Shown one piece after another: positions 5,300-61,013 of a stretch of 64,000 nucleotides of DNA (the first letter of the stretch is position 1; every line of letters starts with the position of its first letter). Below the pieces are notes generated by a model. The model did not search any database. It was not told the DNA's origin and saw only the letters and a program-made list of their open reading frames with translations. A program made the translations under genes and the position numbers. Source of the stretch: an uncultured Nitrospiraceae bacterium (GTDB lineage Bacteria; Nitrospirota; Thermodesulfovibrionia; Thermodesulfovibrionales; Dissulfurispiraceae); contig CAVSHF010000003.1 in NCBI GenBank assembly GCA_963727805.1, positions 128,001-192,000 of the forward strand, given 5' to 3'.

Positions 5300-6982
5300 C
5301 AGGCTGTCCGACAATTATCGAAATTAGAGACAAATGACGGATGCCTCGCCATCCTGAAAACATAACGGGGCTATCTGCTTTATACATAGTATCTCCAGCA
5401 AAAGCTTCCTTGGCGTATGGCAGTAGTTGCCCTCTTTCGGAGGCTTTCCTCTTCCCTTCAGGCATTCCCATATCTTTTTCAGATTTACTGCCGTACAGGC
5501 AAGGTTAAATTCCGACCTTACCGAATTAATTCCTCTCGTCAGAAATGTTCGCAATCCTTTGTTCTCCTTGATATCGCCGATCACAGGTTCAACAATCTGT
5601 TGTCTAAGCTTATATATATATCTTGCTGCAGGCGTTTTCATTTTTTCAGTCATCGCATTGCAGTGAACTTCGTGAGGGAACACCTTCAGAGAGCGTATGC
5701 CGTCCTTCTGTTTGGTACACAGTCGCTGATGCTCACATCCCAAGCATCTCTGACCACGATAGACTCTCACCATCTTGTCCCTCTGTCTGTCAAAATGTTC
5801 GCCCAAGAATGTTAGCGGGTGATCAGCAGGACAAATATACTCATCCCTTTGTTTATTGTATGTAAAGTTCTTCTTGTCGTATGGGTTGTTTGCCCGCGTC
5901 CCACTATTGTCAGGCATGTATGCATCTATCTTCCTGTCCGATAGAAATGCAATGTTCTCACCGCTAAAATATCCAGAATCAAAACTCCAAATAATACTAT
6001 CAGCAATTCCGCCAAGATTCTCTGTGGTTTGTATAACCTGAGGTTGCAACTGGCTGACATCTGCAGCATTCTGCCCCACGTCACTAGCCAAAATGAACCC
6101 ACCCTTATCCACTGTCACCTGAGGATTATAAGAAAGCTCTATCCTGCCTTTCTTATTTTTCATAAAACGACTATCAGGATCTGTCGTGCTTACCTGCTTT
6201 AGCCCTTCCTCATTAACTTTGTCTTGAGCTCCTTGAAGACCTTCTCTGAGTCGACCTATAAAAACATGCCCTTCTTCTTTAGCCCTCTTAACATAGTACT
6301 GTGCAGCTTTCTGAACAAGTTTTTTGCCCTGCCGGGACAGTTGGTCGCTACCCCGTAGTTCACCGAACTGCCGATCCTCACTCTCATCAATCTCTGCCCA
6401 CTCCTGAAGCTCACCATCGACAAAGCTTCTCAGAACCGCCAACTCCTCTTTTGTTAATACTCGCCTGTTTGATGCATTTGCCTTCACTTTGGTTCCATCT
6501 GTCGACAGATGCGACAAATCCAACAATCCTTCCTCTTTGGCAAAACTAACTGTGTGCTTGAAGACTTCCTTTAGTAGATCAGGGTTGTTCTTTCTGAAAT
6601 CGCTGATAGTCCTGAAGTCAGGAGTCAGCTTCTCCGCCAAATATATATACACCACGTTCTCTCTGGCATTGCGTGCCAGTCGACGAGATGAGCGCACCCT
6701 GTCCAGAACTCCCATGATCAGCAACTTCACCAGCATTTTTGGATGATATGCCGGATGTCCGGCACCTGAATAGCGGATATCGAAGCAACCATAATCCAGG
6801 GAGTCAACCAATCCTTCAATGAGAAAACAAATATGATCTTCGGGTATCATATCTTCTAAACTCGGCGGCAGTAGCCAGGATTGCCCTCCATACGACTCAA
6901 TGTATGCCATCGGGTGTACTCCTTGATATCGTTCTTAAATATATTCTACCACCGGATAACTTGATAATTGTCGGACAGCCTG
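5300..6982 (-). mobile_element. IS1182-family insertion sequence
   Basis: Perfect 20-bp terminal inverted repeats CAGGCTGTCCGACAATTATC (5300-5319 / 6963-6982) and a 4-bp CTAG target duplication (5296-5299 / 6983-6986). Confidence 0.93.
5324..6910 (-). CDS. IS1182-family DDE transposase
   Basis: LLPPSLEDMIPEDH, PAYHP, PDFRTISDFR, DGTKVKANAS, TTDPDSRFM, DSGY, R..IVEPVIG.IK motifs. Confidence 0.95.
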   Translation of the reverse strand: MAYIESYGGQSWLLPPSLEDMIPEDHICFLIEGLVDSLDYGCFDIRYSGAGHPAYHPKMLVKLLIMGVLDRVRSSRRLARNARENVVYIYLAEKLTPDFRTISDFRKNNPDLLKEVFKHTVSFAKEEGLLDLSHLSTDGTKVKANASNRRVLTKEELAVLRSFVDGELQEWAEIDESEDRQFGELRGSDQLSRQGKKLVQKAAQYYVKRAKEEGHVFIGRLREGLQGAQDKVNEEGLKQVSTTDPDSRFMKNKKGRIELSYNPQVTVDKGGFILASDVGQNAADVSQLQPQVIQTTENLGGIADSIIWSFDSGYFSGENIAFLSDRKIDAYMPDNSGTRANNPYDKKNFTYNKQRDEYICPADHPLTFLGEHFDRQRDKMVRVYRGQRCLGCEHQRLCTKQKDGIRSLKVFPHEVHCNAMTEKMKTPAARYIYKLRQQIVEPVIGDIKENKGLRTFLTRGINSVRSEFNLACTAVNLKKIWECLKGRGKPPKEGNYCHTPRKLLLEILCIKQIAPLCFQDGEASVICL

Positions 6983-15178: not shown

Positions 15179-15867
15179 TTTCGATCCCTCCTTGATACAA
15201 TCACGTTAATGATCAGTAAAAATACCGACTGAGCTCTTACCCCATTGTCCCGCTGATTATGGGTTCGAGCGTGACAAGCATTTCCCGAAATACTCATTTT
15301 GGGCTATTTACCTTTTTAGCTGATTTACAGGTGTAAATTGCCAAGTTATACCAAATTATATAAGTGCAGATCACCAGAAAAAAGGTAACCCCTGCTACAA
15401 ACGAGTGCTAAGCCATGGTTATACGGCAACTAGCATATTTGACTAGATGGCTAAATGTTGGTTTTCAGGTAATTATCAGATGTTGTTTTTCGACTCCGCA
15501 GTAATTGACATTCTTGACGGTATAGTCAAAGACGCCAGGGAGGATATCAAAACGGGCCTTCTTAACCACCCTGTCCTGCAGAGGTAAAGCAGACTAGTGA
15601 TAGTACTGCACCTCTCCTCTAGCACAGTGAAGAGGGAATCTTAAGAACAGCAGTTTCGTTTTTATGCTGTAAGCGGTGAGGATACAGAGAGATCAGAATA
15701 CCGCTGTAACTCCTGACTTTAAAGGAAGCTATAAACAATCTGATCGATAGAGCAATTAAGAGTTCAAAAAGCAACCAGACTATAGCGACATCGCTGCTTG
15801 GCATTACGCGCTAGGCGCACTACAAACAACTGGAAATAAAACATTAGCAATTGTTTTCGTTTACGAG

Positions 15868-17190
15868 TCAGTTGTCCAGTAGTATTATCTGTATATCCAT
15901 GACATTCGTACCGGTCGGTCCAGTGATAAGTAAATCACCTGTCCTACTGAAAAAAGTATACGAATCATTGTTCTGGAGATACTCCCATGCATCGAGACAG
16001 GCCGCTGCTGCTTTTGCGACAGTTTGACCATCCACAAACGCTCCTGCCGCGTCGGTCGCTCCATCGGTGCCGTCGGTGCCTGCGGAGAGAAAAGTAATAC
16101 CCGAAAGTCCTTTTATTTCTATTCCGAAAACAAGGGCAAGTTCCGTATTCCTTCCTCCCTTGCCGTTTCCTCTAACCGTAACAGTTGTTTCTCCCCCGGA
16201 GATAAGGCATGCCTTATCTCCGGAATTCAATGTTTTTTTAAAAGCAATCGCTTTTCTTGCAAGCTCCCGGCCAACGACTGACGCTTCACCTCTTAATTCG
16301 TTCGAAATGACCGTCGTTTTGTATTCCAATAACTCTGCGGCCTTTCTGGCTGCATCCGTTGCTATTTTGTTGCTTCCAATAACGATGTTTCTTACATTCT
16401 GAAAAACTGGATCGTCATGCTTCGGCGTTTCAGGTATAAGCCCACGTATACCTTTACCGATCACTTCCCCAACACTTGCCGGTAATCTATCTTCCAGCTT
16501 AAATTTCCGGATCACATTGTACGCATCATTATAAGTTGTTTTATCGGGCGCTGTGGGACCCGATGCAATCATATCCATTCTGTCTCCTATAACGTCAGAG
16601 AGTAGCAGTGATATAATTGCTGCCGGTTGGGCTGCTTCAGCTAGCCTGCCTCCTTTAACCGCAGAAATGTGCTTTCTCACTGTGTTAAGCTCATAAATAT
16701 CGGCCCCGGCCTTAAGAAGCAGGCTGGTGACATCCTGTTTATCAGCCAGGCTGATGCCTCTGTAAGGCGCGACGAGAAGAGCAGATCCTCCTCCTGATAT
16801 AAGACAAATCACGAGGGTATTTTTATCCGCCTCTTTGAGCACCCCCACAATTTTCTTTGCGGCTTTCAGTCCGTTTTCATCAGGCAGTGGGTGCCCAGCT
16901 TCATAGGTTATAATTTTGCTATTTCGGTCCCCCGACATAGAATGACCATATTTTGTCACTATTATTCCGCCGGCAAGCAAGTCTCCGAGATTGGCTTCGA
17001 TTGCTTTTGACATGAGCGAAGCCCCTTTGCCGAAACCTATGACGATAAGTTTCCTGAAATTACCGCTCTTGTATGCCGAGCTAATCGTATCGGTGTACGA
17101 AGCCACTGCTTTAAAAGGGTCCACTGCCAGAAGCGATTTACTGAAAATCTCTCTAATGATAAGCCTGGGGCTTTCGCCTGCCATTATCAT
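15868..17190 (-). CDS. Glycerate kinase type 2 (MOFRL family)
   Basis: GFGKG, AGHPLPD, LISGGGSAL, RKHIS.VKGG, SDVIGD, GGETTV, GGRN, GTDGTDG, GPTGTNVMD. Confidence 0.95.
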   Translation of the reverse strand: MIMAGESPRLIIREIFSKSLLAVDPFKAVASYTDTISSAYKSGNFRKLIVIGFGKGASLMSKAIEANLGDLLAGGIIVTKYGHSMSGDRNSKIITYEAGHPLPDENGLKAAKKIVGVLKEADKNTLVICLISGGGSALLVAPYRGISLADKQDVTSLLLKAGADIYELNTVRKHISAVKGGRLAEAAQPAAIISLLLSDVIGDRMDMIASGPTAPDKTTYNDAYNVIRKFKLEDRLPASVGEVIGKGIRGLIPETPKHDDPVFQNVRNIVIGSNKIATDAARKAAELLEYKTTVISNELRGEASVVGRELARKAIAFKKTLNSGDKACLISGGETTVTVRGNGKGGRNTELALVFGIEIKGLSGITFLSAGTDGTDGATDAAGAFVDGQTVAKAAAACLDAWEYLQNNDSYTFFSRTGDLLITGPTGTNVMDIQIILLDN

Positions 17191-17201
17191 ACGTTCCGTC
17201 T

Positions 17202-18488
17202 TCAGAACCCGGGAACAAACAGCGGGATCACATAAGGCCCTTCAGGGATAACGGCCACACGGCGATCTCCCTGTATCTTCACGCTCTCGGTGACAGTGGC
17301 CAACGGTGATTCGATCACGGTGACTCCTGTAAGTATCTGCTGCTCTTTTGTCAATCCCTCGGCATAGAGAAAAATATTAGCCCTTTTCATGGCCTTGACC
17401 TGCATCTCCGTCTGCCATTCATCGATAGCCGCGTACTTTTTCTCAATGATTCCACGGAGAAACATTTCCGGTCCTTCGTCAGTAAGGCACACTTGCGCTT
17501 CAGCATACTCGGGCGACCCAATTCCCTCGGAACATGCAGAGACAATGATAAGGTCACCGCCCGTCTCAAGTATATCGAGGGCACCCACCATTCCCTTGAC
17601 TGTCTGGTAATAAGTCTTATCTAGCGGGTAACCCGCAGCACTGGTCACGACGGTCTTGAATCTTGTCTTAAGTCGGATCTCCGCATAGGGCCGCACGAAT
17701 GAGACCGCTTCAAGGTGGCTCTTTTCGATTTCGCCGAAGTTGACAAAGGATATCCGGCGGTCCTCATCGATGATGGTATTGACAGCCAGGCACCTTCCCA
17801 CCATTTGCACTATCTCTATCTGAGCAGCGTGTAGAGGGTTTCCTTCGATAATACAGTTTGTAGCCCTGCAATCCTCCAGAACCCGAGCACAGTGGAACTC
17901 ACGTATTGTCTTTTCATGTGCAATGCCCGGGGCGACAATTTTTCTTCCGCCGGAGTAACCTGCCATAAAATGGGGCTCCACAAGCCCGACGACAATACGG
18001 AGATCAGACTGGATAAATCGGCGATCCAGCCTGGCCTCTATGCCGCCCGATGTAGTCCCTATGTATTGATGATCATCATCCCGCCGCGCAAAATGGTTGG
18101 CGACGGTCACGGTGTCGAGTACCCAGTCGCTTCCGACCAGTTCACGAAGCTCATCCCCTTCATTAGGCCTGTGGAGACCCGTTGCAACAAGAACAGTGAT
18201 CGCATTAGGGGCCATTCCAGCATCGATAAGCTCTTTTATCAAGGGCGGGAGAATAAGGTCGTTCGGTACAGGCCGCGTAATATCGCAGATGAGGATGCAG
18301 CAACTGCGGCAGCCCTTCGCTTCTTCACAGAGCGTTTTGCCGTTCACCGGATTCGCAAACGCAGCCTTGATAGCTCCCTCAGAGTCTTTGAGGAAAGGCA
18401 TGGCTTTTTTTTGGATCAGCGTCACATCAATATCCTCCGGAAGGTCAAGAGACAGTCCGGTTTTACCATATTTCATATTAATATTCAT
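17202..18488 (-). CDS. larA: LarA-family nickel-pincer-dependent 2-hydroxyacid racemase/epimerase
   Basis: DITRP, ATGLHR, EPHFMAGYSGGRK, FH and YQTVK motifs correspond to LarA catalytic and cofactor-binding residues; probable start 18488 after GGAGG. Confidence 0.9.
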   Translation of the reverse strand: MNINMKYGKTGLSLDLPEDIDVTLIQKKAMPFLKDSEGAIKAAFANPVNGKTLCEEAKGCRSCCILICDITRPVPNDLILPPLIKELIDAGMAPNAITVLVATGLHRPNEGDELRELVGSDWVLDTVTVANHFARRDDDHQYIGTTSGGIEARLDRRFIQSDLRIVVGLVEPHFMAGYSGGRKIVAPGIAHEKTIREFHCARVLEDCRATNCIIEGNPLHAAQIEIVQMVGRCLAVNTIIDEDRRISFVNFGEIEKSHLEAVSFVRPYAEIRLKTRFKTVVTSAAGYPLDKTYYQTVKGMVGALDILETGGDLIIVSACSEGIGSPEYAEAQVCLTDEGPEMFLRGIIEKKYAAIDEWQTEMQVKAMKRANIFLYAEGLTKEQQILTGVTVIESPLATVTESVKIQGDRRVAVIPEGPYVIPLFVPGF

Positions 18489-18502
18489 GTCCGATCCTCC
18501 AT

Positions 18503-19207
18503 TCACATACCGAGGTATGCCTGTCTAACGTGATCGCTCTTCAGCAATTCCTGCCCTTGCCCCTCCATGACTATGCGGCCTGTTTGAAGAACGTAGGCGC
18601 GGGCGGAAATCTCGAGGGCTTCATAGACATTCTGTTCGACAAGCAAAACAGTGACGCCCCGGGCATTGATCTCCTTGACAATCCCGAAGATCTCCGAGAC
18701 CAGTTTTGGGCCCAGTCCCAGTGATGGCTCATCCAGTATCAGCAGGGTAGGGTTGGACATCAGTCCCCGTGCAATGGCTAGTTCCTGCTGCTCTCCGCCG
18801 CTGAATGTATCGGCGCGCTGCCCCTTCCGCTCCTTCAATATAGGAAACAGATTGAAGACGCTTTGCAGATGCTTTTCGACATCAGCCTTGGACCGGACGG
18901 CATAGGCCCCTAACATGAGATTGTCCAGAACGGACAGCCGACCAAAGAGCTTCCTGCCCTCAGGGACCATGGAGATGCCCATTTTTACTATATCAAAAGG
19001 CTGGGTCGTATGAATCGGGGCATTCTTGAATAGAATTTCCCCTTGTCGCGGATGAATTAGACCCGCAATGGTCTTAACTACGGTGGATTTTCCGGCACCA
19101 TTGGAACCGATGAGGCTGACGATCTCTCCTTCGTTGATCCTGAAAGAAATGTCCTGAACAGCCAGAAGTCCTTTATAGCCCGCGGATATATTATTTAAGG
19201 AGAGCAC
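18503..19207 (-). CDS. livF: HAAT ABC transporter ATP-binding protein (LivF-like)
   Basis: GSNGAGKST, VPEGR, FSGGEQQ, LDEPSLGL, LLVEQN. Confidence 0.92.
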   Translation of the reverse strand: MLSLNNISAGYKGLLAVQDISFRINEGEIVSLIGSNGAGKSTVVKTIAGLIHPRQGEILFKNAPIHTTQPFDIVKMGISMVPEGRKLFGRLSVLDNLMLGAYAVRSKADVEKHLQSVFNLFPILKERKGQRADTFSGGEQQELAIARGLMSNPTLLILDEPSLGLGPKLVSEIFGIVKEINARGVTVLLVEQNVYEALEISARAYVLQTGRIVMEGQGQELLKSDHVRQAYLGM

Positions 19208-19931
19208 AGTACTTTTCCCCTAGATAGGCTTGAATGACTTCTCGGTCCGAGCACACTTCTTTTGGCGTGCCTTCCATGATTTTTTTACCGCTGTTCAGGA
19301 CAACGACACGGTCGGATATCTGCATGACGGCCTCCATCACATGCTCAACTATGACCAGTGTAATTCCTAAGTTCCTGATTTTCCTGATGAGATCAATTAT
19401 CTCTCGCAACTCGACTTTAGTGAGTCCGGCCATGGATTCGTCCAGCATGAGCAAACGCGGCTGAGTGGCCAACGCCATAGAGACCTCCAGCCTCTTTTTA
19501 TCAGCAATGGTCAGCTCAGTCCCAAGGGAATCCCTTTTTTCATAGAGACCCGTGAAAGTCAGTATCTCGCCAGCCTTTTCCATGGCCGGGTTGATCCGTC
19601 GATAACGCAACAGCGCACCCGTCGTAACGTTTTCGAGGACCGTCATTTCGCTGATCACCTCTACAATCTGAAAAGTGCGTGCGATACCAAGGTTGCAGAC
19701 TTTGTCGGGCCGCATGCGCGTTATATCCTTGCCGTAGAAGGAGACGTTCCCGCTGTCCGGCTTGTAGAAGCCGGTAACGCAATTGAACAGGGTGGATTTC
19801 CCGGCCCCGTTGGGACCGATAACGCTGACGATTTCCCCTTCTTCAACAAAGAAGTGGATATCGTTGTTTGCCGCGAGACCGCCGAACCGCTTCGACAACC
19901 CGGCGACTTTCAAACAGATCGCTTTGTTCAT
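19191..19931 (-). CDS. livG: HAAT ABC transporter ATP-binding protein (LivG-like)
   Basis: KRFGGL.AN, GPNGAGKST, ARTFQ, VEHVM, VIQAYLG. Confidence 0.92.
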   Translation of the reverse strand: MNKAICLKVAGLSKRFGGLAANNDIHFFVEEGEIVSVIGPNGAGKSTLFNCVTGFYKPDSGNVSFYGKDITRMRPDKVCNLGIARTFQIVEVISEMTVLENVTTGALLRYRRINPAMEKAGEILTFTGLYEKRDSLGTELTIADKKRLEVSMALATQPRLLMLDESMAGLTKVELREIIDLIRKIRNLGITLVIVEHVMEAVMQISDRVVVLNSGKKIMEGTPKEVCSDREVIQAYLGEKYCALLK

Positions 19932-20893
19932 TTCAGTTTCCTGCCTAGCCTAGAAAAAAGCTTCCAGACCCCTTCGGGGTAGTACATGGAAATCAGCGTG
20001 ATCAATAACCCGTATATCAGCATGTCCACGCCTGTTCCCTTGTACCCAAGGGTAACACGGGTGTATTCTGATGCAGGTATCAAAATAGCCGCTCCGATCA
20101 CTGGACCCATTATACTGCCCGCCCCTCCAAGCATCGAAATGAGAACAATCTGGATAGACGTAGCGAGAAGCATGACGCTCCCGGGATCGATGTAAAGAAT
20201 ATATTGAGCGTAAAATGTGCCGGCCATGGCACTCAGAAAAGCGCTTATCATAATAGCCATGAGACGGTACAAAACAACATTAACACCCAGGACTTCCGCA
20301 ATTTTATGACTCTCCTTGATAGCGCGGAAATAGTAGCCCATTTTAGAGGTGGCTATGAAATAACAAACAGCCAGGGAAACTAGAAGAAAGGCAAGCATGA
20401 TATAGTAATAAGGAAGTTTTGAAGAGTTGAACAGGAAATTAGCGAAGGACTCGTCCTGCATGGGCAAGGACAGTCCTTCTGCAGCACCCACTATTTGCCA
20501 GTTGTTGAAGACAATCCTGACTATTTCTGCAAATGCAATACTAGCTATCGCAAAATAGTGGCCCCTTAGGTTGGAACAGGGATATCCGATACCTGCCGCC
20601 ACCAAAGCAGCGGCGCAGCCCCCTGCGATGAGTCCTATCCACGGGTTAACCCCATGGGCGATCGACAAATAGGAAGAAGTATAAGCGCCTATGCCGAAAA
20701 AAGCCGCCTGCCCGAAAGAAAACATACCGGCATAGCCGCCCATGATGTTCCACGCGACTCCCAGCATGCCAAACATGTACACGAGGATCATTACATGAAT
20801 ATGAAAGGACTCGCGGACAACGAGAGGAAACACAATGAGCAGCAAAAGTACGACGACTCCCGCAATACTTTGTCGACTTGCGAATTTGCGCAT
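19928..20893 (-). CDS. livM: HAAT ABC transporter permease (LivM-like)
   Basis: WNIMGGYAG.FSFGQAAFFGIGAY, LRGHYFAI, GGAGSIMGP. Confidence 0.92.
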   Translation of the reverse strand: MRKFASRQSIAGVVVLLLLIVFPLVVRESFHIHVMILVYMFGMLGVAWNIMGGYAGMFSFGQAAFFGIGAYTSSYLSIAHGVNPWIGLIAGGCAAALVAAGIGYPCSNLRGHYFAIASIAFAEIVRIVFNNWQIVGAAEGLSLPMQDESFANFLFNSSKLPYYYIMLAFLLVSLAVCYFIATSKMGYYFRAIKESHKIAEVLGVNVVLYRLMAIMISAFLSAMAGTFYAQYILYIDPGSVMLLATSIQIVLISMLGGAGSIMGPVIGAAILIPASEYTRVTLGYKGTGVDMLIYGLLITLISMYYPEGVWKLFSRLGRKLK

Positions 20894-20896
20894 GCG

Positions 20897-21757
20897 TTAC
20901 CAGCCCAGCAGACCCTGCGGCCTTATCCAGATTGTTATGAGATATATCATGAAAACAATGGCGTATTTATAAGATGGGTCAAAGAAAAAGCCGCCTAATG
21001 TCTGAGCCAAACCCACGAGTATTCCGGCAATAAATGCCCCCTCAATGCTGCCGAACCCGCCGAGTGCCACGACACAAAAAGCGATAGTCCCAAACAAGCC
21101 TCCTACCTGAGGATAAACGTAGTAATACGTGGAAAGGAAGCCCCCTGCCATTCCGACAAGGGCCGCACCAATTCCGAAAGAGAGCGAGTTGATGCGCTCG
21201 GTATTAATCCCCATGAGAAGGGCCGCCTCGCGGTCCATCTCCGTTGCCAGAATCGCCTTGCCGGTTCTTGTCCTCTGCAGGAAAAAAAACATGCAGACAG
21301 AGGCGATTACGCTGCCGACGGAGGCTGCAACTTTAGGGATGCTCAGGGCTATGCCTCCGATGTGCCACGTACCTTGTAGTATTGTGGCAGGCAAAAGCCG
21401 AAAATCAGGAGTCCAGAAATAAACGGCCAGATTGGAGATAAAGATACTCACTCCGAAGGTCACTACCAACTGGGCCAGCATGGGACCCCGCATCACCTTG
21501 CTTACAATGAAGCGGTAAATCAGCAAGCCCATGATAAACATGCCTACAAAACATATTGGAATGGAAAAGATCGGGTCGATGCCGTATAAGGTAAAGAGCC
21601 AGAAGGAGGTAAACATGCCAAGCATCAGGAATTCGCCGTGGGCGAAATTCACGATATTCATGACACCCCAGATAAGCGTCAAGCCTATGGCGATCAGTGA
21701 ATACATCAAGCCGATTAATAAACCATCGGCAAGCTGCTGAAGCAATTGATCAGGCAT
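20897..21757 (-). CDS. livH: HAAT ABC transporter permease (LivH-like)
   Basis: GLTLIWGVMNIVNFAHGEF, LGGFGSI.GA, RPQGLLG. Confidence 0.92.
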   Translation of the reverse strand: MPDQLLQQLADGLLIGLMYSLIAIGLTLIWGVMNIVNFAHGEFLMLGMFTSFWLFTLYGIDPIFSIPICFVGMFIMGLLIYRFIVSKVMRGPMLAQLVVTFGVSIFISNLAVYFWTPDFRLLPATILQGTWHIGGIALSIPKVAASVGSVIASVCMFFFLQRTRTGKAILATEMDREAALLMGINTERINSLSFGIGAALVGMAGGFLSTYYYVYPQVGGLFGTIAFCVVALGGFGSIEGAFIAGILVGLAQTLGGFFFDPSYKYAIVFMIYLITIWIRPQGLLGW

Positions 21758-21772
21758 GGAGCCGTTCCGCTC

Positions 21773-23047
21773 CTACTTTCTTCCTTCCCATGCAGGAAAC
21801 GGCCAGACTACCGCCTTCGAAGCTGAATCAAAAGGCCAAATCGTTACATATTCCTGATTGAGTATCTGCACAAGCGTTCCCCGCGCGTAGATGTTCTGGT
21901 GTGATTGCGGGTCGAACTTGATTCCCTTCCATGGGTAGATAGTGTGGTTGCCGGGGATATCAGTATCTTGCAGAGCTTTCACGATGGCTTCCGGAGCTGT
22001 GGACTTCGCCCGGTTGATGGCCTCGGCAAGGACAAATGGGGCCATAAAGCTCCGGGCGGCATTTTCACTCATGTCTATGCCATATTTCTTTCTGAAAAGT
22101 TCGTTGACCTTGGCCACGAGTGGTTTTTTCTTGGCAAGATCGAGCGCAAAAGTCGACCGGACAATCATGTAGTTGCCATCAGCTTTTATTGCCGCCAGGT
22201 AGCCCGGCTCGATATAACCCGCCATAGTCATAATGCCTTTAGGTTGAAAGCCTTTTTCCTTAAAAGTTCTGGTAAAGAGAATGGCATCTGTCACATACGA
22301 AGCATGCATCAGCACGTCCGGCTTGCTTACGATTAGCTTGCTCACCTCGCTGGACACGTCTGTTGCGTTGGCTGGGTAAGCTATATCAGCAACAACTTTA
22401 TAGCCGAATTCGGCGGCATATTTTTTGTATGCCTTGCCGGCATTGGAGCCGAATTCAGTATTTTCGTAAAGGACAGCGACATTATGAACCGCCTGTCCGG
22501 TCTTCTTTTCAAGGTCCTTCAGGAACTGGAACTGGTCCCGGGCAAAAATATCGTCGTGGGGGCTAACCCTGAAAAAGTACTTGTATCCCCTTTCCGTAAG
22601 TGTAGGAGATGAAGAATCGGAGCATACGTATGGAATTCTCAGCCTTTCGGTAATCTGGCTGGCAGTTTTCGTTACGGCACTCTGGTAGGCCCCGATCATG
22701 GCAACTACCTTTTCCGAGGTGATCAGCCTTTCGGCCTCGGACATGCCGTTTTTCGGGTCCCCTTTGGTATCGGCATATACAATTTCGATTTTTGCACCAC
22801 CCAAGTTCGGCAGCCCCGCACTCTCCGCCAAGGGAAGATCAAGACTGTATTTCCCGTTAATAATATCCACCGCCAGATCGACTCCCCTCCTGCAATCCAG
22901 ACCAGTTGAGGCGATATTGCCAGTCAGGGGATAGACTGCGCCGATTTTGATGACCTGCTGCTGTGATTGCGCGGAAACGGAAAAAACTAAGATCAGCAAC
23001 AACGATAATGCGACGGACAAAACTCTGATAGACTTATTCGATGCCAT
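21773..23047 (-). CDS. HAAT ABC transporter substrate-binding protein (LivK/J-like)
   Basis: Signal peptide, IKIGAVYPLTG, GAYQSAVT, YFFR, ENTEFG; probable start MASNK at 23047. Confidence 0.92.
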   Translation of the reverse strand: MASNKSIRVLSVALSLLLILVFSVSAQSQQQVIKIGAVYPLTGNIASTGLDCRRGVDLAVDIINGKYSLDLPLAESAGLPNLGGAKIEIVYADTKGDPKNGMSEAERLITSEKVVAMIGAYQSAVTKTASQITERLRIPYVCSDSSSPTLTERGYKYFFRVSPHDDIFARDQFQFLKDLEKKTGQAVHNVAVLYENTEFGSNAGKAYKKYAAEFGYKVVADIAYPANATDVSSEVSKLIVSKPDVLMHASYVTDAILFTRTFKEKGFQPKGIMTMAGYIEPGYLAAIKADGNYMIVRSTFALDLAKKKPLVAKVNELFRKKYGIDMSENAARSFMAPFVLAEAINRAKSTAPEAIVKALQDTDIPGNHTIYPWKGIKFDPQSHQNIYARGTLVQILNQEYVTIWPFDSASKAVVWPFPAWEGRK

Positions 23048-23458
23048 CACACTCTTCCTCCTACTCGTATTTTTCATTTCCAACCCTATACGTTTCACAG
23101 GATTTTGGCAGAAATAGTTGAACTGTCTCGAACAGAGAAATTAAAAGGTTGCCTACTGTCGGAATCTCTTTCATCGATAAGAAAATAACAATAAACGCAT
23201 CAAAATACAATGGCGTGAATTAACAAAACTGGACAGATTATGGGGTTGCCAAAGTTCCGCACGAGTAACACTAATGGGTTAGACCCTGCCCGTCATCCGA
23301 TAGCTGTCATGTCCCTGCCCCCATTTTAGAGGAGATTAACCGGCTATTTACCTTTAGGATCTGTAGCCAGGGTTCAGTAATAAACTCCTGATTGCAGGCA
23401 TGACTCGATGCCTCTTGTTCACTGAGTCCCTCCGTGGGTCAGTGGAAACTTTTCCCGG

Positions 23459-23486
23459 TTGACAAAGAACAACACAATGATAACAT
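23459..23486 (+). promoter_or_regulatory. Putative sigma70 promoter of the beta-hydroxyacid dehydrogenase gene
   Basis: TTGACA, 16-bp spacer, TGn-TAACAT, about 30 bp upstream of the start. Confidence 0.45.
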
Positions 23487-23516
23487 TGAAGTATACCAAT
23501 TTAGAAAGGACAATAA

Positions 23517-24356
23517 ATGATGATAATTTCAGTGTTAGGGTTAGGCATTATCGGAAGCGCCTGGGCGAAAAATCTGATCTCAGATGGCCATGCCGTGCGA
23601 TGCTGGAACCGGACGCCTAAAGATTTCCCCAACTTTTACGCATCCATTCAGGAAGCGGTAGAAGGAGCGAAGGTGATCTTTATCGTCGTCGCCGATCCTC
23701 CGGCAGTGCAGTCCGTTCTGGATAAGATTCAACCCAAGCTTGGCAGCGGAGTATTGGTGATCCAATCAAGCACAATTTCCGCCAAATGGACTCGACTCTT
23801 TGCCGAACAGGTGCAGCGGACAGGCGCATTGTTTTTAGAAGCGCCCTTCACAGGAAGCAAACTTGCAGCGGAGCGGCGTCAAACCGTTTATTATCTGGGT
23901 GGTGTACCGGAAGTCGTCGATAAGGCGCGCCCAGTTCTCGAACCTATATCTAGTGCCATCCTCCATATCGGACCGCTAGGTTCCGCCAGTTCGCTGAAGC
24001 TTGCGATGAACTTGAACATTGCCGGCGTCGCCCAAGCTTTGTGCGAGAGCCTGTCTTTGTGCCGGGCGGCGGGAATCCCAGATGAAGTCTATTTCAATGC
24101 ACTTGCGCGAAATGCTTCCCGTTCGGGAGTTTCGGATCTCAAAGAACCTAAGCTGCGTCAGCGCGATTACACCCCGCAGTTTTCACTCAAGCACATGGCG
24201 AAAGATCTTCGCCTGGCATTGGAGACCGCTGCCGATCTCGCATTGTCACTCGAACAAACCGGACATCTTAAAAAAATCTACGACCAGGGAATGTCAGCCG
24301 GGTGGGCGGATGATGACTTCATCGGACTCATGCGGCTCCTGGATGAAAAACCATGA
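23517..24356 (+). CDS. NAD(P)-dependent beta-hydroxyacid dehydrogenase (3-hydroxyisobutyrate dehydrogenase / tartronate semialdehyde reductase family)
   Basis: GLGIIG, WNRT, SSTI, EAPFTGS, catalytic K in SLKLAMN, F.LKHMAKDL. Confidence 0.9.
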   Translation: MMIISVLGLGIIGSAWAKNLISDGHAVRCWNRTPKDFPNFYASIQEAVEGAKVIFIVVADPPAVQSVLDKIQPKLGSGVLVIQSSTISAKWTRLFAEQVQRTGALFLEAPFTGSKLAAERRQTVYYLGGVPEVVDKARPVLEPISSAILHIGPLGSASSLKLAMNLNIAGVAQALCESLSLCRAAGIPDEVYFNALARNASRSGVSDLKEPKLRQRDYTPQFSLKHMAKDLRLALETAADLALSLEQTGHLKKIYDQGMSAGWADDDFIGLMRLLDEKP

Positions 24357-27559: not shown

Positions 27560-29625
27560 TTATTCCCCAGCACTGAACAACACCACGATTGAATGTGGTT
27601 GTACGAGATACTTACGGGCCTGCACAACCGGCGCGTCATCCCATTCTAGGATGTCCTCCGGCGATTCAAGAAAAGTATCTATGCACCGTCTCCACTGGTT
27701 CGCCGCAGTGGGCGGGATTTCAAACTGAAGAGGTTCTGTATAGGCATGCATCATCACATGGGTCTGCAGGTTCTTTGCACTGTTAAAGGCAGTAAAGGCA
27801 AGACTATGAGAGTATTCTGCCCAATCAGGGTTATCAAGCCTGACGCCATGCCATTTGACCTGTGCCTGAGCAAGAAGTTCGTTCAGGCTCAGGTCGTCAT
27901 CCCCTTCGGGGTTCAGGCGGCGCAGCCTGAAAGCGATCAGTTCTTTAACAAAACGGTGGAGGCCCTTATGCTTGTCACACAGGCTCCAGTCAAACCAGCT
28001 CAGTTCATTGTCCTGGCAGTAGGCATTGTTGTTGCCGAGCTGGGTCCGTCTTGTTTCATCCCCCATCAGAAGCATGGGTGTGCCAAGGGCAATGAGGTTA
28101 AGCGTAAGAAAGTTTTTTATCTGCATACATCGTAACTTCTCAACCCCAGGGTCATCGGTTGGACCTTCAAAGCCGCAGTTCCAGCTCAGGTTATTGTCAT
28201 TGCCATCCCGGTTTCTTTCCCCGTTTGCGAGGTTGTACTTTTCAGAGTACGTAACGAGGTCGTTCAAGGTAAATCCATCATGACAGGTAACGAAATTTAT
28301 GCTCTGCTCTGATTCAAGTTCTTCATGGCCGAATATGTCCGGGCTGGCAAGCAGGCGGGCTGAGAGTTTTGAGACAGAGCCGTCGTCCCCTCTCACGAAG
28401 CTCCTGATATCGTCCCGGAACTTCCCGTTCCATTCCTTCCAGCTGTCGCTTATGAAAGAGCCGAGTTGATAGAGGCCACCCGCGTCCCATGCCTCAGCAA
28501 TAAGTTTTATCCCGGCAAGCACGGGGTCTGTCTCTATATCAAGTAAAAGAGGCGGCTTTGCTAGCGGCCTGCCCTTCTCATCCCGTGAGAGTATAGACGC
28601 CAGGTCAAACCTGAACCCATCCACATGCATTACCTGCACCCAGTAGCGGAGGCTATCAAGGATCATCCTCCTAACGATAGTCTGGTTTGTGTTAAGGGTA
28701 TTGCCGGTCCCGGAATAGTCGGCATAACGTGTCTGATCAGTCTCGAGCATGTAATAGACGCTGTTTTCAAGGCCGCGCCAGCACAGTATAGGCCCTGTAT
28801 GATCGCCCTCGGCAGTGTGATTATAAACCACATCCAAAATGACCTCTATACCTGCCCTGTGCAGGGCCTTTACCATATCGCGGAATTCATTAAACGGCCC
28901 AAGATGGTCCTTCCGTGAGCTGTAACCCCGATGCGGTGCAAAGAATGAGATCGGACAATATCCCCAGTAATTGACAAGCCCCTGGGGGCAGTCCTGTGGG
29001 TCAAACTGGAAGACCGGCAGCAGTTCAACCGCAGTAACACCGAGGTCCTTCAGATACGGGATTTTCTGAGTTATGCCAGCGTATGTCCCCCTTTTTCGGG
29101 CTGAACGCCCGAATTTTGATGCTTGGTAAAGCCTGCGACATGCACCTCGTAGATGACTGTTTTTGAAAAGGGTCTCCTGAGGGGTCTGTCGTTCTCCCAG
29201 TTATAGCCTCGGAGGTCTATAGCGATACTCTTCATCGCCGTGGCACAGTTATCCCCCGGCAGGCTCGCCTTTAAGCGGTCATAGCCATCAGGCACGGCCA
29301 CCGCTTTTGCGTAAGGATCAAGAAGAACCTTTTCAGGGTCGAACCTGAACCCCTTGCTCTGTTCTGAGGGCCCGTATGCTCGGTAACCATATATCTGCCC
29401 GTGTCCGATCCCTCCAACAAACACATGCCAGTAGTGGTAAGTATTGTTAGTTTTCGGACAGAGACGGATGACCTGGGACGGCCTCATGTCATCGGCATTA
29501 TCAAAAAGTAGGAGTTCTATCGCAGTGGCGCTTTTTGAAAAAACGCTGAAGTTGGCTCCGTCAGGATAGACTACGGAGCCAAGCGGATAACTGCTGCCAC
29601 TGGCTGTATTTGCGGGCATATTCAT
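27560..29625 (-). pseudogene. glgX: Glycogen debranching enzyme GlgX, split by a single-base frameshift
   Basis: N-part (YPLG..GANFSVFS, LLDPYA, IYEVHV.GFT) and C-part (DVVYNH, DGFRFDLA, EAWD, HDGFTL); one base missing at the C5T5 run 29087-29096, restoring it gives EKRGTYAGI..KIPYLKDLGVTAVELLPV..NYWGY. Confidence 0.9.
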
Positions 29626-40415: not shown

Positions 40416-41845
40416 TATCTTAAGGTTCTTCTTGAGAATGATGAGATAAGGGAAAGCCTCTCCAACCGATTTCGGTTCATCATGGTTGACGAATACCAGG
40501 ATACAAATTCAATTCAGGGTGACATCGCATATCAACTGGCCCGGAATCACGGCAATATTGTGGTGGTCGGTGACGATGCCCAGAGTATATACGGCTTTAG
40601 AGGGGCTACTCATCAAAACATCATGGCGTTTCCCGATAAGTTCGAGGGGTGTCGGATAATCAAGCTCGAAGAAAACTATCGCAGCGCCCAGACTATCCTC
40701 GATGTCGCCAATACCGTACTTGAAAACATGAAACACAAGTACTCAAAATGCCTCGTATCCATCAGGAAGAAACAGGGGCATAAACCACAGCTTCTCTTCC
40801 TCCGCGATTCCCATGAAGAGGCCGAATGGGTCGCCGACAGAATAAAGAAACAGATGGACCAAGGGATTTCCCTCGGTCATCAGTGCATCCTTTTCAGGTC
40901 GATGTACCTCTCGATTGCGGTCCAGTCTGAGCTGAGCGAGAGAAACATTCCTTACGAAACCTATGGAGGGCTCAAGTTTTACGAAACTGCTCATGTCAAA
41001 GACCTGATGGCCCACCTCAAAGTGATATCAAACCCCAAGGATGAACTATCATGGAATAGGGCGCTGATACTTATCGAAAGAATAGGGGCCAAGACGGCTG
41101 ACTCTCTTACCGATGAAATAGTCAAGTATGCGTCTCTTCCGGAAATAATAGGGCATGTCCTCTCAAAGCATGTCAGGAAGCAGAGCCACGGAGAAGGGCT
41201 ATCAAAACTGAGGGCAGCACTGGACATTATAGATTAGGAGAAAGAGGATGTTGGCGACAAATTCGAAGTCATTATGGATTACTACAGACCGATATTGAAG
41301 GACAGATTCGACGACTGGCACTTGGGGCTAAACGACCTTGAGGCATTAAGGCAGATAGCAGCTAGATACAATTCGTTGGAAGAATTGCTTGAGGATTTCG
41401 GCATAGAACCTCCGGAGAGAGGGGTCTGGCGGATCGAACCTGAGACAAAAGAAGAGGGGATGCCTCTCGTGCTCTCTACGATCCACTCTGCAAAGGGTCT
41501 CGAATGGGACTGCGTATTCCTGATGGGGCTCATTGACCGCGTTCTTCCAGGACTTTTTCCCTTGACGACGAGGAATCGATTGAGGAGGAGCAGCGACTGT
41601 TCTATGTCGCTATAACCAGAGCAAAGAACAGGCTCTTTCTGACCTTGCATCATGAAGGGAAAAGGGGGGAATTACCCAGTTCAATAAGATGTCGCGGTTC
41701 GTCGACACTCCAGGACTTTTGTCGCTGCTTGAAACAAAGAATGCCTCAAATACAAAGTCTCGCGAGAAGCGGAGGTAAGTGTCGTGATGGCAAAAATCTA
41801 CGACAAAAAAACCTTCTGCACAAGATCATGGATAATTACAAATGA
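40416..41845 (+). pseudogene. UvrD/PcrA-family helicase, N-terminally truncated and disrupted
   Basis: VDEYQD, VGDDAQSIYGFRGA, LEENYRS, STIHSAKGLEW and (other frame) EEEQRLFYVAITRAK; no Walker A; in-frame TAG 41235-41237; frameshifts near 41550 and 41665. Confidence 0.88.
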
Positions 41846-41947
41846 TGAACATTAAGGCAAGTCTCTTTCGTAGACTTTTGACATACTCCCCGCCCTAAAG
41901 AGACGGGGATTCTGGGTATCGACAGCCACAGCCTGCCGAAGCAGGTC

Positions 41948-43098
41948 TTACGCAGCCTCCTCCCTGAGGCGATGTCCCGCCTCATACTTCCCTGCCGCAA
42001 AGAGTCGCAACCCTTCACGGTGAATATTTACTGATGCATTGGCATCACGGTCATGCTGAATCCCGCATGAAGGACATATCCATTGCCGATCCTTTAACCC
42101 CAGCCCTTCATGAATGTGTCCGCAGTGTGAGTAGATCTTGGAGCTCGGGTAGTACCTGCCTACCTCCACTATGGCACATCCGTACTTCAGGCCCTGCCAC
42201 TTGAGTATCGTGACGAAATCACCCCAGGCAAGGTCTGAGACCTTGCGTCCCCACAGGGCCTTCATCCCCTGCAGACTCAAATCCTCGATACAGAGCACAT
42301 CGTAAGTCTTGGCAAGCTTGGCAGCAGTCTGGACTGCCAATCCCTCCGCATGCTTGCAATTCTGCGGTACAGCCTGGCTAGAGCAAGTCTCGCTCGTCTC
42401 CGACCGTTACTGCCTTTCTTTTTCCTGCTGACATTGCCACAGGACTTCCTGAGTTGTTTGATCTGCTTCATTAGCGGGTGGGGAGCTGAGATCGTAGTCT
42501 TGTCTGAAAGGGTCACAAACGTTGTAAGCCCAAAGTCCAGACCTGCGGTGTTACCCGTCACAGTCTGCCTGGCAACGATTGCTTCGTTCAGAACTGAAAA
42601 TACTATCCAGTAATCCCCAACTGCGTCACGGACGATTGAGACAGTCTTAATCTGGCCTTCCATCGGACGTGAGTTGTGGAATTTGTACGAACAGCGCCCT
42701 ATCTGAATATGGTTGTCATCGAGCAGCTTCCATCCAGCTTGTTTGAGGGTGAAGGATTTGTACTTGACCCTCTTTTTGAACTTGGGCGGAGCGACTCTGC
42801 GGCCAATACGAGTCTTGCACCATGAGAAAAATCGCTGGTAACTCCTGTCGATTCTCTCGATCACGTCCTGCACTGACTGGGAACCAAGCAATTGCCACTC
42901 TGGTCTTACATGCTTTCTCATCAACGCAATCCGATGCTTCAGACGTGACGCAGACAGGTGTTTGCCGAACATCCGGAAGTCCCGACGGTGCAGGGCTATG
43001 CAGTGATTCCATATCTGGCAGGCAACGATGCGTTGCCGGTCCAGACGCTTGTTTCTGTCAGCTGCGTAGAGCTTGTATCTGTAGGCTTGACGCATCAT
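41948..43098 (-). pseudogene. tnpB: TnpB RNA-guided endonuclease, frameshifted
   Basis: HTH N-terminus (AYRYKLY), RuvC-I GLDFG, RuvC-II IEDL, RuvC-III DRDANA; single-base frameshift at about 42332-42336; first Zn-finger Cys appears as Tyr (SSKIYSHCG). Confidence 0.9.
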
Positions 43099-43123
43099 TA
43101 CCTCCTATAGTATCATTTGGTCT

Positions 43124-43525
43124 GTGAATAATTCAACAGACTTGAGACATGGTAGACACTGTGTATTCCATATGCACGTACACTTGGTCTTTGTTGCCAA
43201 ATACCGCCGTAAGGTATTTACTCCAGCGGTTATTGCTACCCTGCAAACAGTCTTCGCAAAAATATGCGAAGACTTTGAAGCAGCACTGGTTGAATGTGAT
43301 GGAGACTACGACCATGTGCACTTGCTGATCAATTACCCTCCCAAGACCTCCGTATCTAGGTTGGTTAACAGTCTCAAGGGGGCATCCTCACGCAGACTAA
43401 AAACCAAACACCCCGGACTGAAGAGATTCTACTGGAAGGGGACTCTTTGGTCTCCCAGCTACTTCGCCGCCAGCTGCGGCGGAGCACCAATCTCTATTAT
43501 CCGGCAATACATCGAAAATCAATAA
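43124..43525 (+). CDS. tnpA: IS200/IS605 Y1 transposase TnpA
   Basis: HLVFVAKYRR, DHVHLL (HUH), LKGASSR, LWSPSYF, catalytic Y in RQYIENQ. Confidence 0.93.
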   Translation: MNNSTDLRHGRHCVFHMHVHLVFVAKYRRKVFTPAVIATLQTVFAKICEDFEAALVECDGDYDHVHLLINYPPKTSVSRLVNSLKGASSRRLKTKHPGLKRFYWKGTLWSPSYFAASCGGAPISIIRQYIENQ

Positions 43526-45670: not shown

Positions 45671-46135
45671 ATGGAACACTATATCTCAGAAGTAACTCGA
45701 AGAGCGATCATTGATCACCTCACAATCTCTGGACTCAAATGGAGTGGCAGACTGCAAGAAGACGAATTCCTTGGTCGTCTTTATGATTTGATCTCTATGC
45801 CCTCGACAGATCGCCGAGTTTGGAATGTAGCTAGTGAAATTATCCAGCACCGGGTGATTTGGAATGACTGGACTGATGATTGGGTATTAACCGATCCTCG
45901 CTTTAACTTGCTATATGAATCCGATGAACGATTCCTGCGATTTCTATGCGAAACAGTTCATCCAGTGGTGCGGCCTAATACATACGAGGCTCTATACTTA
46001 GTAGACTATTATAACGACAAACTTATAAGGGACGGCTGGCGGATAGTTGAGGTGAAGCTCATTTCAGGGAAACCAATCTTCAATCATCAGCAGGCAGATG
46101 AGGCATCCATGATGGGGTCGGCCCTTGACAATTGA
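45671..46135 (+). CDS. AbiJ N-terminal domain 3 (AbiJ_NTD3)-like protein with no effector domain
   Basis: ISEVTRRAIID..WSGRL.E.EFL.RLYDL..MPSTD.R..QHRV..DW.DDWV.TD.RF.L..DE.FLRFLCET.HPVVR..ISGKPIF pattern, recognised from memory of the family. Confidence 0.7.
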   Translation: MEHYISEVTRRAIIDHLTISGLKWSGRLQEDEFLGRLYDLISMPSTDRRVWNVASEIIQHRVIWNDWTDDWVLTDPRFNLLYESDERFLRFLCETVHPVVRPNTYEALYLVDYYNDKLIRDGWRIVEVKLISGKPIFNHQQADEASMMGSALDN

Positions 46136-58938: not shown

Positions 58939-60270
58939 TTATGATCTCTTCAGGAACTGTACATCTGTCATATGCGTTGAGCAAGAGATGCACGGATCAT
59001 AGGCACGGACGAGCATTTCGACATGTTGGGTAATCTCATCTTCGCTCAGGTCGATAATCTGAGGTACCAGTTGCCGCATATCATGTTCGATATTATTAAG
59101 GTTCTGATTGGTAGGAATAATGCAATTTGCATCGGTGATTATCCCCTTGTCATCTATTGCATAATTATGGAAAAGAAGGCCTCGCGGCACTTCGACGGCA
59201 CCCACTCCATTGCCTGCCCTGACAGGTATGTTTTCGCGTTCATTCACGCCTACTGTGATTACCTCTTCATGATTAATGCCGCTTGCCGTCAGTTCTTCAA
59301 TGATGTAAATAGCATTCTTTACGCAATGGACTGATTCGACTAATTGGGCGACTGTATTGAGAAACGGATTTATGCATTTTGGCTTTAACCCGACGGCCAA
59401 AGCCGCTTCTTTAGCTGAAGGATGCAGTTTGTCATAGTTCAGGTTAATCCTCGCCAAAGCACCAACAGCGTATGATTCCCTGCTGAGCCTCGTATGCTTG
59501 GCCGATGAATGGGGAACGATAAATTCATTAGTGATCTTTCTGTAGTCTTTTTTGTCCATTTTTACGCCATCCGTTGAGGCAATGGTTCCTGACAGAAAAG
59601 GATATTCGTCGGTATTGTTTGACAGTGCAACATATTCCGTGTCCCGTTCAAACTCAGGGAACGTAAGGGATGAGATCAGTTCAACGGTCGCATCCATATC
59701 AGCCTGCAGAGTAATCATCTTATTAAGCATAGATTCCAAATCTTGCTTTCCGGGAAGCTTTGTGAATCCCCCGATGATTGCTGATATAGGATGGACGTGC
59801 CTACCAACTAGTATTTCGCAGGCTTCATTGCAGACCTGTTTCATCCTGAGGGCCCTCCGAACAACTTCTGCATGACTTTCCATTAGCGGAAGGAAGCTCT
59901 TAACGCGTAACAGGTCAGGCACCGCAAGGAAATAGATGTGCAGGATATGGCTATCAAGTATTTCATAATGGAGCAGGAGTTTTCTGAGCTTTATCGTTTG
60001 TACCGTGGGTGTTATGCCGAGTGCATCCTCTGCAGCCTGGATAGAAGCGAGGGTATGGCCGCAGGCGCAAATACCGCAAATCCTGCTCGTTATGTGCTGA
60101 GCCTCAAAGATGGAACGGCCCCTGAGCATTCCTTCAAAAAAGCGCGGTGCTTCAACAATGTCAAGTCGGCATGTCTCCAGCCTGCCCTCTTGAACCTTTA
60201 GGATGATCTTCCCATGGCCTTCCACCCTAGTGATATACCCTGTCGAGATATTGACATTCTTATTTGCCAC
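58939..60270 (-). CDS. hydA: Group 3b [NiFe] hydrogenase (sulfhydrogenase-type) large/alpha subunit
   Basis: TRVEGHG, L1 RICGICACGH, EVPRG.L.H, L2 RAYDPCISCSTH plus a C-terminal extension. Confidence 0.93.
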   Translation of the reverse strand: MANKNVNISTGYITRVEGHGKIILKVQEGRLETCRLDIVEAPRFFEGMLRGRSIFEAQHITSRICGICACGHTLASIQAAEDALGITPTVQTIKLRKLLLHYEILDSHILHIYFLAVPDLLRVKSFLPLMESHAEVVRRALRMKQVCNEACEILVGRHVHPISAIIGGFTKLPGKQDLESMLNKMITLQADMDATVELISSLTFPEFERDTEYVALSNNTDEYPFLSGTIASTDGVKMDKKDYRKITNEFIVPHSSAKHTRLSRESYAVGALARINLNYDKLHPSAKEAALAVGLKPKCINPFLNTVAQLVESVHCVKNAIYIIEELTASGINHEEVITVGVNERENIPVRAGNGVGAVEVPRGLLFHNYAIDDKGIITDANCIIPTNQNLNNIEHDMRQLVPQIIDLSEDEITQHVEMLVRAYDPCISCSTHMTDVQFLKRS

Positions 60271-60271
60271 G

Positions 60272-61012: not shown

Positions 61013-61013
61013 C

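Follow-up and report, generated by a model that had tools for sequence, protein, structure and literature searches.

A Nitrospiraceae operon for a HAAT-type transporter, a LarA racemase, and a glycerate kinase with a possible role in glycerate uptake and racemisation

The stretch of DNA under study, here called the window, comprises 64,000 nucleotides (nt) of the genome of an uncultured Nitrospiraceae bacterium (assembly GCA_963727805.1, contig CAVSHF010000003.1, positions 128,001 to 192,000). It contains an intact operon of seven genes on the minus strand (15868-23098), all of which are open frames. In the order of the operon they encode a periplasmic binding protein (SBP) of the HAAT family (21773-23098), permeases of the LivH type (20897-21757) and the LivM type (19928-20893), ATPases of the LivG type (19191-19931) and the LivF type (18503-19207), a LarA-type nickel-pincer 2-hydroxyacid racemase (17202-18506), and a putative class II (MOFRL) glycerate 2-kinase (gck, 15868-17190). 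The intergenic gaps between the longest open reading frames (ORFs), from the SBP gene to gck, are 15, 3, -4, -17, -4, and 11 nt, and the positions of the ribosome binding sites suggest that the real starts of the SBP gene and of larA are the ATGs at 23047 and 18488, respectively. This is in agreement with an earlier note on this DNA, which had described a tightly coupled operon, and the seven genes are presumably co-transcribed. A scan for promoters and terminators stayed at chance level (9 versus 11.1 and 10 versus 9.7), and therefore no promoter is claimed.

The host genome has a size of 3.89 Mb and is 100% complete as judged by marker genes. The absence of larB, larC, and larE from the window, also stated in the earlier note, was confirmed, and all three genes were found on two contigs of the genome (larB at C5:325915, larC at C3:1012231, larE at C5:952425), each over its cut-off. 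An enolase gene is present and, from a reading of the translations, so are DsrAB-like genes. A GlcF/LdhH-like Fe-S protein is encoded directly after larE (C5:953146-954384; L214:2147-3385), and a GlcD-like FAD oxidase at C5:1195490, both below cut-off. A second larA gene (C3:2321910-2323181; L007) is nearest to the models of the LarAH6 malate racemase and of LarAH10 and scores under both cut-offs.

The LarA protein of the operon matches the Pfam domains Lar_N (180.6 bits) and LarA_C (59.5 bits), both over the cut-offs. The best match in the PDB is LarAIp of Isosphaera pallida (9EID/9EIA, 340 bits, E 2e-100), followed by 2YJG (202 bits, E 1.5e-58). LarA enzymes invert C2 of their substrates by hydride transfer with the nickel-pincer nucleotide (NPN), and the protein retains the full set of cofactor and catalytic residues, namely R78, H112, H179, K189, H205, Y300, Q301, and K304, which comprise the NPN-binding Arg, Lys, and His, the two catalytic His, and Tyr, Gln, and Lys of the carboxylate site. 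The four specificity positions are occupied by F180, M181, W364, and Q365, and at the positions compared the key residues equal those of the group-2 protein Snov_3500 (F-M, W-Q-T-M; Dataset S2 of Desguin 2020, PMC7583248). Match scores and key residues thus assign the protein to group 2 (SAR/LarAIp-like), which is described as the only LarA group with an enzyme that has solved substrate complexes (PMC11851776). It has the NPN and catalytic residues and the pocket residues Met, Trp, and Gln in common with LarAIp/LarAH2/SAR (PDB 9EIA, 9EID, 9EIF), whereas it contains, like Snov_3500, a Phe in place of Leu174 of LarAIp. In vitro, LarAIp acts as a racemase on lactate, 2-hydroxybutyrate, and glycerate; the first two are its best substrates, and the efficiency with glycerate is 26% of that with lactate (PMC11851776).

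The equivalog model of the group-1 lactate racemases (NF033504) was missed (342.7 versus 460 bits), and the second pocket residue is Met, while the reported pocket of lactate racemases is F-F-W-E/Q, and that of malate racemases ends with a Lys (PMC11770544). The malate/tartrate racemase models LarAH5 and LarAH6 were missed as well (265.7 versus 462 bits and 284.5 versus 500 bits, respectively), and Gln365 replaces the Lys at the position equivalent to T359. A Gln at this last pocket position has been tied to the glycerate preference of LarAH43 of Enterocloster asparagiformis, for which glycerate is the substrate with the highest kcat/KM (PMC11770544, Table 2). By its published description, LarAH43 shares the Gln at the T359-equivalent position; it sits, however, in the lactate racemase group and hence in another subgroup, and the paper leaves its function in the cell undecided (PMC11770544). 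Judged from these residues and from LarAIp, the LarA of the window can very probably racemise glycerate and lactate, and in vivo it is probably promiscuous, lactate included. The earlier note had proposed glycerate or a related sugar acid as the substrate; glycerate is still the best guess, while sugar acids, malate, and gluconate do not suit the pocket signature.

The kinase consists of the domains DUF4147 and MOFRL, has 2B8N as its best PDB match (E 5e-96), and contains the class II consensus motif (as given in PMC2063504) at residue 373. It reaches neither of the two archaeal equivalog cut-offs, and gck is the only MOFRL gene that was found in the host genome. MOFRL kinases make 2-phosphoglycerate, with D-glycerate as the preferred substrate. 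The protein is accordingly classified as a class II (MOFRL) glycerate 2-kinase with predicted activity. Characterised class II glycerate kinases form 2-phosphoglycerate; the enzyme of T. tenax has 100% activity on D-glycerate and 30% on L-glycerate and does not phosphorylate lactate, and the MOFRL protein TtuD is a member of the Agrobacterium tartrate cluster (PMC2063504).

The SBP (Pfam Peripla_BP_6) has the same nearest solved protein by sequence, profile, and fold, namely 8WCH (SAR11_0655, 42% identity, E 3e-98), which binds L-pyroglutamate (PMC11485210); a predicted structure of the SBP (pLDDT 64) was used in the fold search alone. The two systems share the five-gene HAAT architecture, but the genomic context of the SAR11_0655 type is pxpABC, in contrast to larA, gck, hyi, and garR for the cassette treated here. 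Relatives of the SBP with 43-46% identity are encoded on plasmids, and in all four annotated records oxoprolinase/hydantoinase or hydro-lyase genes adjoin. The SBP and 30 dereplicated cassette SBPs differ from five such relatives (the fifth record carries no annotated context) at invariant positions that include K144, S160, E215, and H265, for which contact with the ligand is a conjecture. Several clade-invariant residues thus set the cassette SBPs apart from the oxoprolinase-linked type. Polar residues that are invariant in the clade are S160, D161, E215, and H265. No oxoprolinase is among the recurring neighbours of the cassette, and a search of the host genome for pxpA (PF03746) gave no match, hydantoinase-type oxoprolinases having been outside this genome-wide search.

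Family membership and gene order are also like those of LivJ and LivKHMGF of Escherichia coli. However, the SBP is only 23% identical to LivJ and misses the LivJ/LivK equivalog/subfamily model (76.5 versus 477 bits), and all five transporter genes score under the Liv/Urt equivalog cut-offs of NCBIfam, among them the LivH-type permease with its matches to UrtB/LivH. This permease is 70-95% identical among the cassette relatives, in which the LivM-, LivG-, and LivF-type proteins are found as well. S79, T102, Y150, and Y202 of LivJ, which together with E226 we take to be its ligand contacts, align with S140, S163, F216, and Y268, so that the carboxylate-binding Ser/Thr and both aromatic residues are kept. 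No acidic residue stands at the position aligned with the amine-binding E226, where the alignment is loose. The claim of the earlier note that the importer does not serve leucine, isoleucine, or valine is therefore supported by the closest relatives and by the missing amine-binding Glu. On sequence grounds the SBP is placed in a sister clade of the L-pyroglutamate binders, and its likely ligand is glycerate or another small polar carboxylate of this kind that has no alpha-amino group.

Conservation of the gene neighbourhood was analysed with the best 80 of 547 larA relatives, for which 19 of the 64 parts that make up the genome collection were covered, with 80 of 95 metagenome loci from an SBP search, and with 11 regions from a sample of the phylum. 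Dereplication at 97% SBP identity reduced 95 loci with this SBP to 73. The larA gene follows the transporter genes in 28 of 33 dereplicated loci with at least 5 kb downstream, and these belong to several phyla. For 21 loci the full context was available, and they contain gck (10), hyi (8), a gene for a tartronate semialdehyde reductase (TSAR; 8), and genes for a UxaA/GarD-family dehydratase (5). At least one of gck, hyi, and TSAR is present in 11 of the 21, and in 5 of 13 after dereplication at 90%. The 49 loci with a group-2 larA but without this SBP (at least 12 kb each) contain gck once, hyi once, TSAR never, and a GlcD-type oxidase gene six times. The fullest cassette, hyi-garR-SBP-livHMGF-larA-gck, is common in Nitrospirota, where the closest relatives of the operon are found in metagenome-assembled genomes (MAGs), and is found again in a deltaproteobacterial MAG (L053), where gck stands ahead of larA; the Syntrophales have gck in front of the SBP gene. 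The hyi and TSAR genes of the cassettes tested pass curated cut-offs, and the TSAR tested is GarR-like (1VPD, E 4e-135). The window genome as well as L012, L015, and L016 keep the transporter, larA, and gck without hyi and TSAR. The recurrence of the cassette across phyla shows that the linkage is more than chance, and the synteny proposed in the earlier note has thus been verified for the SBP, liv, and larA genes, with the kinase often included. Table S1 of Desguin 2020 lists no gene associated with group 2, in contrast to the transporter-kinase operon described here, and COG2379 and the word 'glycerate' are absent from the supplements of that survey (PMC7583248).

Within the phylum sample the SBP was found in 12 of 301 genomes, and 11 of these 12 also contain this LarA. 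The hyi gene is present in 13 of the 301, namely in 10 of the 11 other genomes with the SBP and in 3 of 289 without it, counts in which related genomes are not independent. larC is present in all 22 cassette or larA genomes that were tested, and none of these 22 has a glyoxylate carboligase over the cut-off, so that Hyi and TSAR are probably not fed from glyoxylate. The same kinase family funnels C3 acids to 2-phosphoglycerate in the clusters gcl-hyi-glxR-ttuD-pyk of Pseudomonas and ttuABCDE of Agrobacterium vitis, and the hyi-TSAR pair of such clusters is also found in relatives of the cassette. Unlike them, the cassette has neither glyoxylate carboligase nor tartrate dehydrogenase; it takes its input through an ABC importer and has a racemase in addition.

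Some further gene arrangements were seen at the loci compared. A two-subunit dehydratase of the UxaA/GarD family (about 99 and 387 amino acids), a layout known from SuyAB, is encoded beside the cassette in Syntrophales and metagenome loci (L021, L023-L026, L157, L158, L175, L177); L-glycerate, sulfolactate, and tartrate are candidate substrates. At L193 and L199 (genome G069) an apparent operon for sugar acids, with an IlvD-family dehydratase, a DapA-family aldolase, and a Tct-like transporter, has hyi and garR as its last genes, and a separate cluster encodes a tartrate dehydratase, a tartrate dehydrogenase, and an MFS permease. A group-2 larA is paired with a gene for a group-22 nickel-pincer isomerase at L029:6024-7391 and at six similar loci (a cluster of seven; NF052515 over the cut-off for L029). 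A candidate tartrate dehydrogenase at L015 was rejected, because it is 40% identical to the enzyme of L010, scores below the cut-off, and adjoins asd; it is probably LeuB.

Taken together, we propose with a probability of about 0.6 that the operon serves the import of D- and L-glycerate, their racemisation, and phosphorylation to 2-phosphoglycerate. The ABC system would import glycerate of either hand, and LarA, loaded with NPN made by the dispersed larBCE genes, would bring L- and D-glycerate into equilibrium through transfer of a hydride. D-Glycerate would then be drawn by the class II kinase to 2-phosphoglycerate, in the direction of enolase and gluconeogenesis. Where the cassette is fuller, hydroxypyruvate would additionally be turned into D-glycerate by Hyi and a GarR-type reductase. 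The host genome contains neither of these two, but a GyaR-like reductase is encoded elsewhere, below cut-off.

Several observations weigh against this proposal. Neither gck nor hyi nor TSAR lies beside 10 of the 21 full-context cassettes, and the same is true for 8 of 13 at 90% dereplication. hyi was not found in the host genome and, of 18 further genomes tested outside the phylum sample, only 3 have it over the cut-off. MOFRL kinases are encoded in 202 of the 301 genomes of the phylum, and co-occurrence of gck on the genome level is therefore uninformative. The F-M-W-Q pocket is clade-wide, with 56 loci that have neither this SBP nor the kinase next to 33 that have either (before dereplication), and thus it does not choose between glycerate and lactate. 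Sister LarAs adjoin GlcD-type FAD dehydrogenases, and one cassette (L168) adjoins a lactate permease, with a GlcD-type gene and a class V aminotransferase nearby. In two Acidobacteriota loci (L009 and L010; L200 and L201) a larA with 89-90% identity is flanked on one side by the gene of a DASS anion symporter and on the other by that of a tartrate dehydrogenase, which exceeds the cut-off of TIGR02089. A quick LarA tree (SH-aLRT only, 95 rows, long outgroup; sequences were excluded if fewer than 400 of their residues aligned or if the match contained a stop, and L053 is not in it), used solely for this question, nested the two within the cassette clade. This might be a tartrate/malate epimerase context or a recruitment into a route from tartrate to glycerate.

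The core might instead be an importer and racemase for short-chain 2-hydroxyacids in general, mainly lactate, that feeds a D-specific FAD dehydrogenase, with the glycerate genes as accessories in some lineages. The substrate preference of LarAIp for lactate and 2-hydroxybutyrate (PMC11851776) would suit this, as would the tighter linkage of the SBP gene with larA (28/33) than with gck (10/21), the GlcD-type oxidases at 6 of the 49 related larA loci without the SBP, the lactate permease and GlcD-type gene at L168, and the GlcD-like and GlcF/LdhH-like proteins of the host, both under cut-off. A lactate permease was not found in the host genome. We regard this explanation as rather doubtful, since the co-oriented enzyme genes here and in the nearest relatives are gck, hyi, and garR and not a lactate dehydrogenase, the class II kinase of T. 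tenax is without activity on lactate (PMC2063504), and the clade-invariant polar residues S160, D161, E215, and H265 of the SBP would suit a more hydroxylated ligand. It also seems quite improbable that the imported compound is hydroxypyruvate, or an oxo acid related to it, and that the main task of LarA is the repair of L-glycerate that arises inside the cell, either through unspecific reductases or from tartronate semialdehyde in racemic form. It is true that hyi and the GarR-type TSAR head the operon in many Nitrospirota, that a published table gives the reduction of hydroxypyruvate to L-glycerate as a reaction of lactate dehydrogenase (PMC10970406), and that a class V aminotransferase gene lies near the cassette at L168. 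However, the four genomes or loci named above, including the window genome, retain the transporter, larA, and gck without hyi and TSAR, and one TSAR with published kinetics strongly favours D-glycerate (PMC3031564).

Tartrate dehydrogenase converts meso-tartrate to D-glycerate, and LarA could act as a C2-epimerase of tartrate (or malate) that supplies meso-tartrate for this decarboxylation, with the kinase as the next enzyme. The two Acidobacteriota loci fit such a route, as do the origin of TtuD from the Agrobacterium tartrate cluster (PMC2063504) and a tartrate dehydrogenase over the cut-off in 9 of 22 tested genomes. It is nevertheless quite improbable, because the pocket does not have the Lys that marks malate/tartrate racemases, LarAIp is negative on malate, and a tartrate dehydrogenase is adjacent in none of the 21 full-context SBP loci and over the cut-off in neither the host genome nor the nine tested genomes in which TSAR heads the operon. 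Least credible appears an import of pyroglutamate or branched-chain amino acids with a purely physical tie to larA and gck. The closest solved SBP does bind L-pyroglutamate (PMC11485210), and the transporter is without larA in 5 of 33 loci. Yet all four annotated plasmid relatives lie beside oxoprolinase/hydantoinase or hydro-lyase genes and differ at K144, S160, E215, and H265, no pxpA was found in the host, and LivJ is remote (23%), with its amine-binding Glu missing in the SBP.

The operon is part of a DNA block (15863-23221) that has 85-89% nucleotide identity to relatives in blastn comparisons with L112, L101, L102, L012, L016, L118, and L114. Upstream of the longest SBP ORF the homology extends for about 120 nt and ends at the place where many relatives have garR and hyi. 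SerA of the host is 79% identical to that of a genome of the same genus and 62% to that of G087, a member of another family; for the cassette kinase it is the reverse (56% and 83%, respectively), and the SBP is 89% identical to the SBP of G087. The genome of the same genus is without the cassette and has its kinase gene in another context. These findings fit a horizontal gain of the cassette, by which a resident kinase would have been replaced. Cassette copies in which larA is interrupted or gck is truncated were found at L108 (G095), L107 (G033), L102 (G155), and L106 (G245); those of G095 and G033 seem to be decaying, and the larA interruptions in G155 and G245 may be assembly errors.

A gene for a beta-hydroxyacid dehydrogenase (23517-24356, plus strand) is divergent to the operon and lies outside the shared DNA block. 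The earlier note had counted it in and had named TSARs as enzymes that make glycerate, but an assignment as the TSAR of the system could not be upheld. The protein scores far below the TSAR models TIGR01505 (115 versus 341 bits) and PRK11559 (107 versus 397 bits), passes no equivalog cut-off, is 26% identical to the GarR-type TSARs of the cassettes, and has 3PEF, which is not a TSAR, as its best PDB match. None of the 21 full-context loci has an orthologue, and the DNA of the gene gave a single match of 118 nt, in L114. It is thus probably a bystander and not part of the system.

Farther away, the window contains a glgX-like gene for a glycogen debranching enzyme (27560-29625, minus strand), which is split into two frames near 29070-29100, and a gene for a DDE transposase (DUF772 and DDE_Tnp_1_6; 5324-6910, minus strand). 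In the region 40482-43525 an IS200/IS605 element with tnpA (43124-43525) and tnpB in two frames (41948-43098) adjoins a partial UvrD-like helicase ORF. A short ORF (45671-46135, plus strand) contains only the N-terminal domain of AbiJ and is possibly the remnant of a defence gene. A cluster of four genes for a NiFe hydrogenase with FAD/NAD-binding and Fe-S subunits (58939-62890, minus strand) resembles the cytoplasmic sulfhydrogenase type, to which it would be assigned.

The earlier note had spoken of a candidate new racemisation pathway. This is overstated, because the racemisation of glycerate by LarA enzymes has already been published in vitro (PMC11770544, PMC11851776) and every protein of the operon belongs to a known family; what appears to be new is solely the physiological context. 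No paper on an operon of larA, glycerate kinase, and a HAAT transporter or on a glycerate-binding protein of an ABC transporter was found in a search that left most subscription journals outside, and the literature searched contained nothing relevant on the uptake of glycerate by ABC transporters or on the stereochemistry of GarR. A more far-reaching scheme, which is tentative and which we consider unlikely as a whole, would regard the cassette as a horizontally mobile module for the scavenging of DL-glycerate by anaerobic bacteria of soil and peat. A lineage of pyroglutamate binders would have been retooled to the first glycerate-binding protein of an ABC transporter, LarA would be the first physiological glycerate racemase, the two-subunit UxaA/GarD-family dehydratase of Syntrophales would convert L-glycerate directly to pyruvate, and LarA would thereby apportion the L-form to energy metabolism and the D-form to gluconeogenesis.

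Many in vitro substrates have been described for LarA enzymes, and their physiological significance is called open (PMC11770544). The cassette offers a concrete and easily tested role in vivo, i.e., a glycerate racemase that is coupled to a D-preferring kinase. It also suggests a candidate new class of ligands for HAAT binding proteins that are labelled 'branched-chain amino acid' in the databases. If the proposed function is true, a racemase activity that has so far been seen only in vitro would have a biological job, and L-glycerate or hydroxypyruvate would be an overlooked carbon source in anoxic soils.

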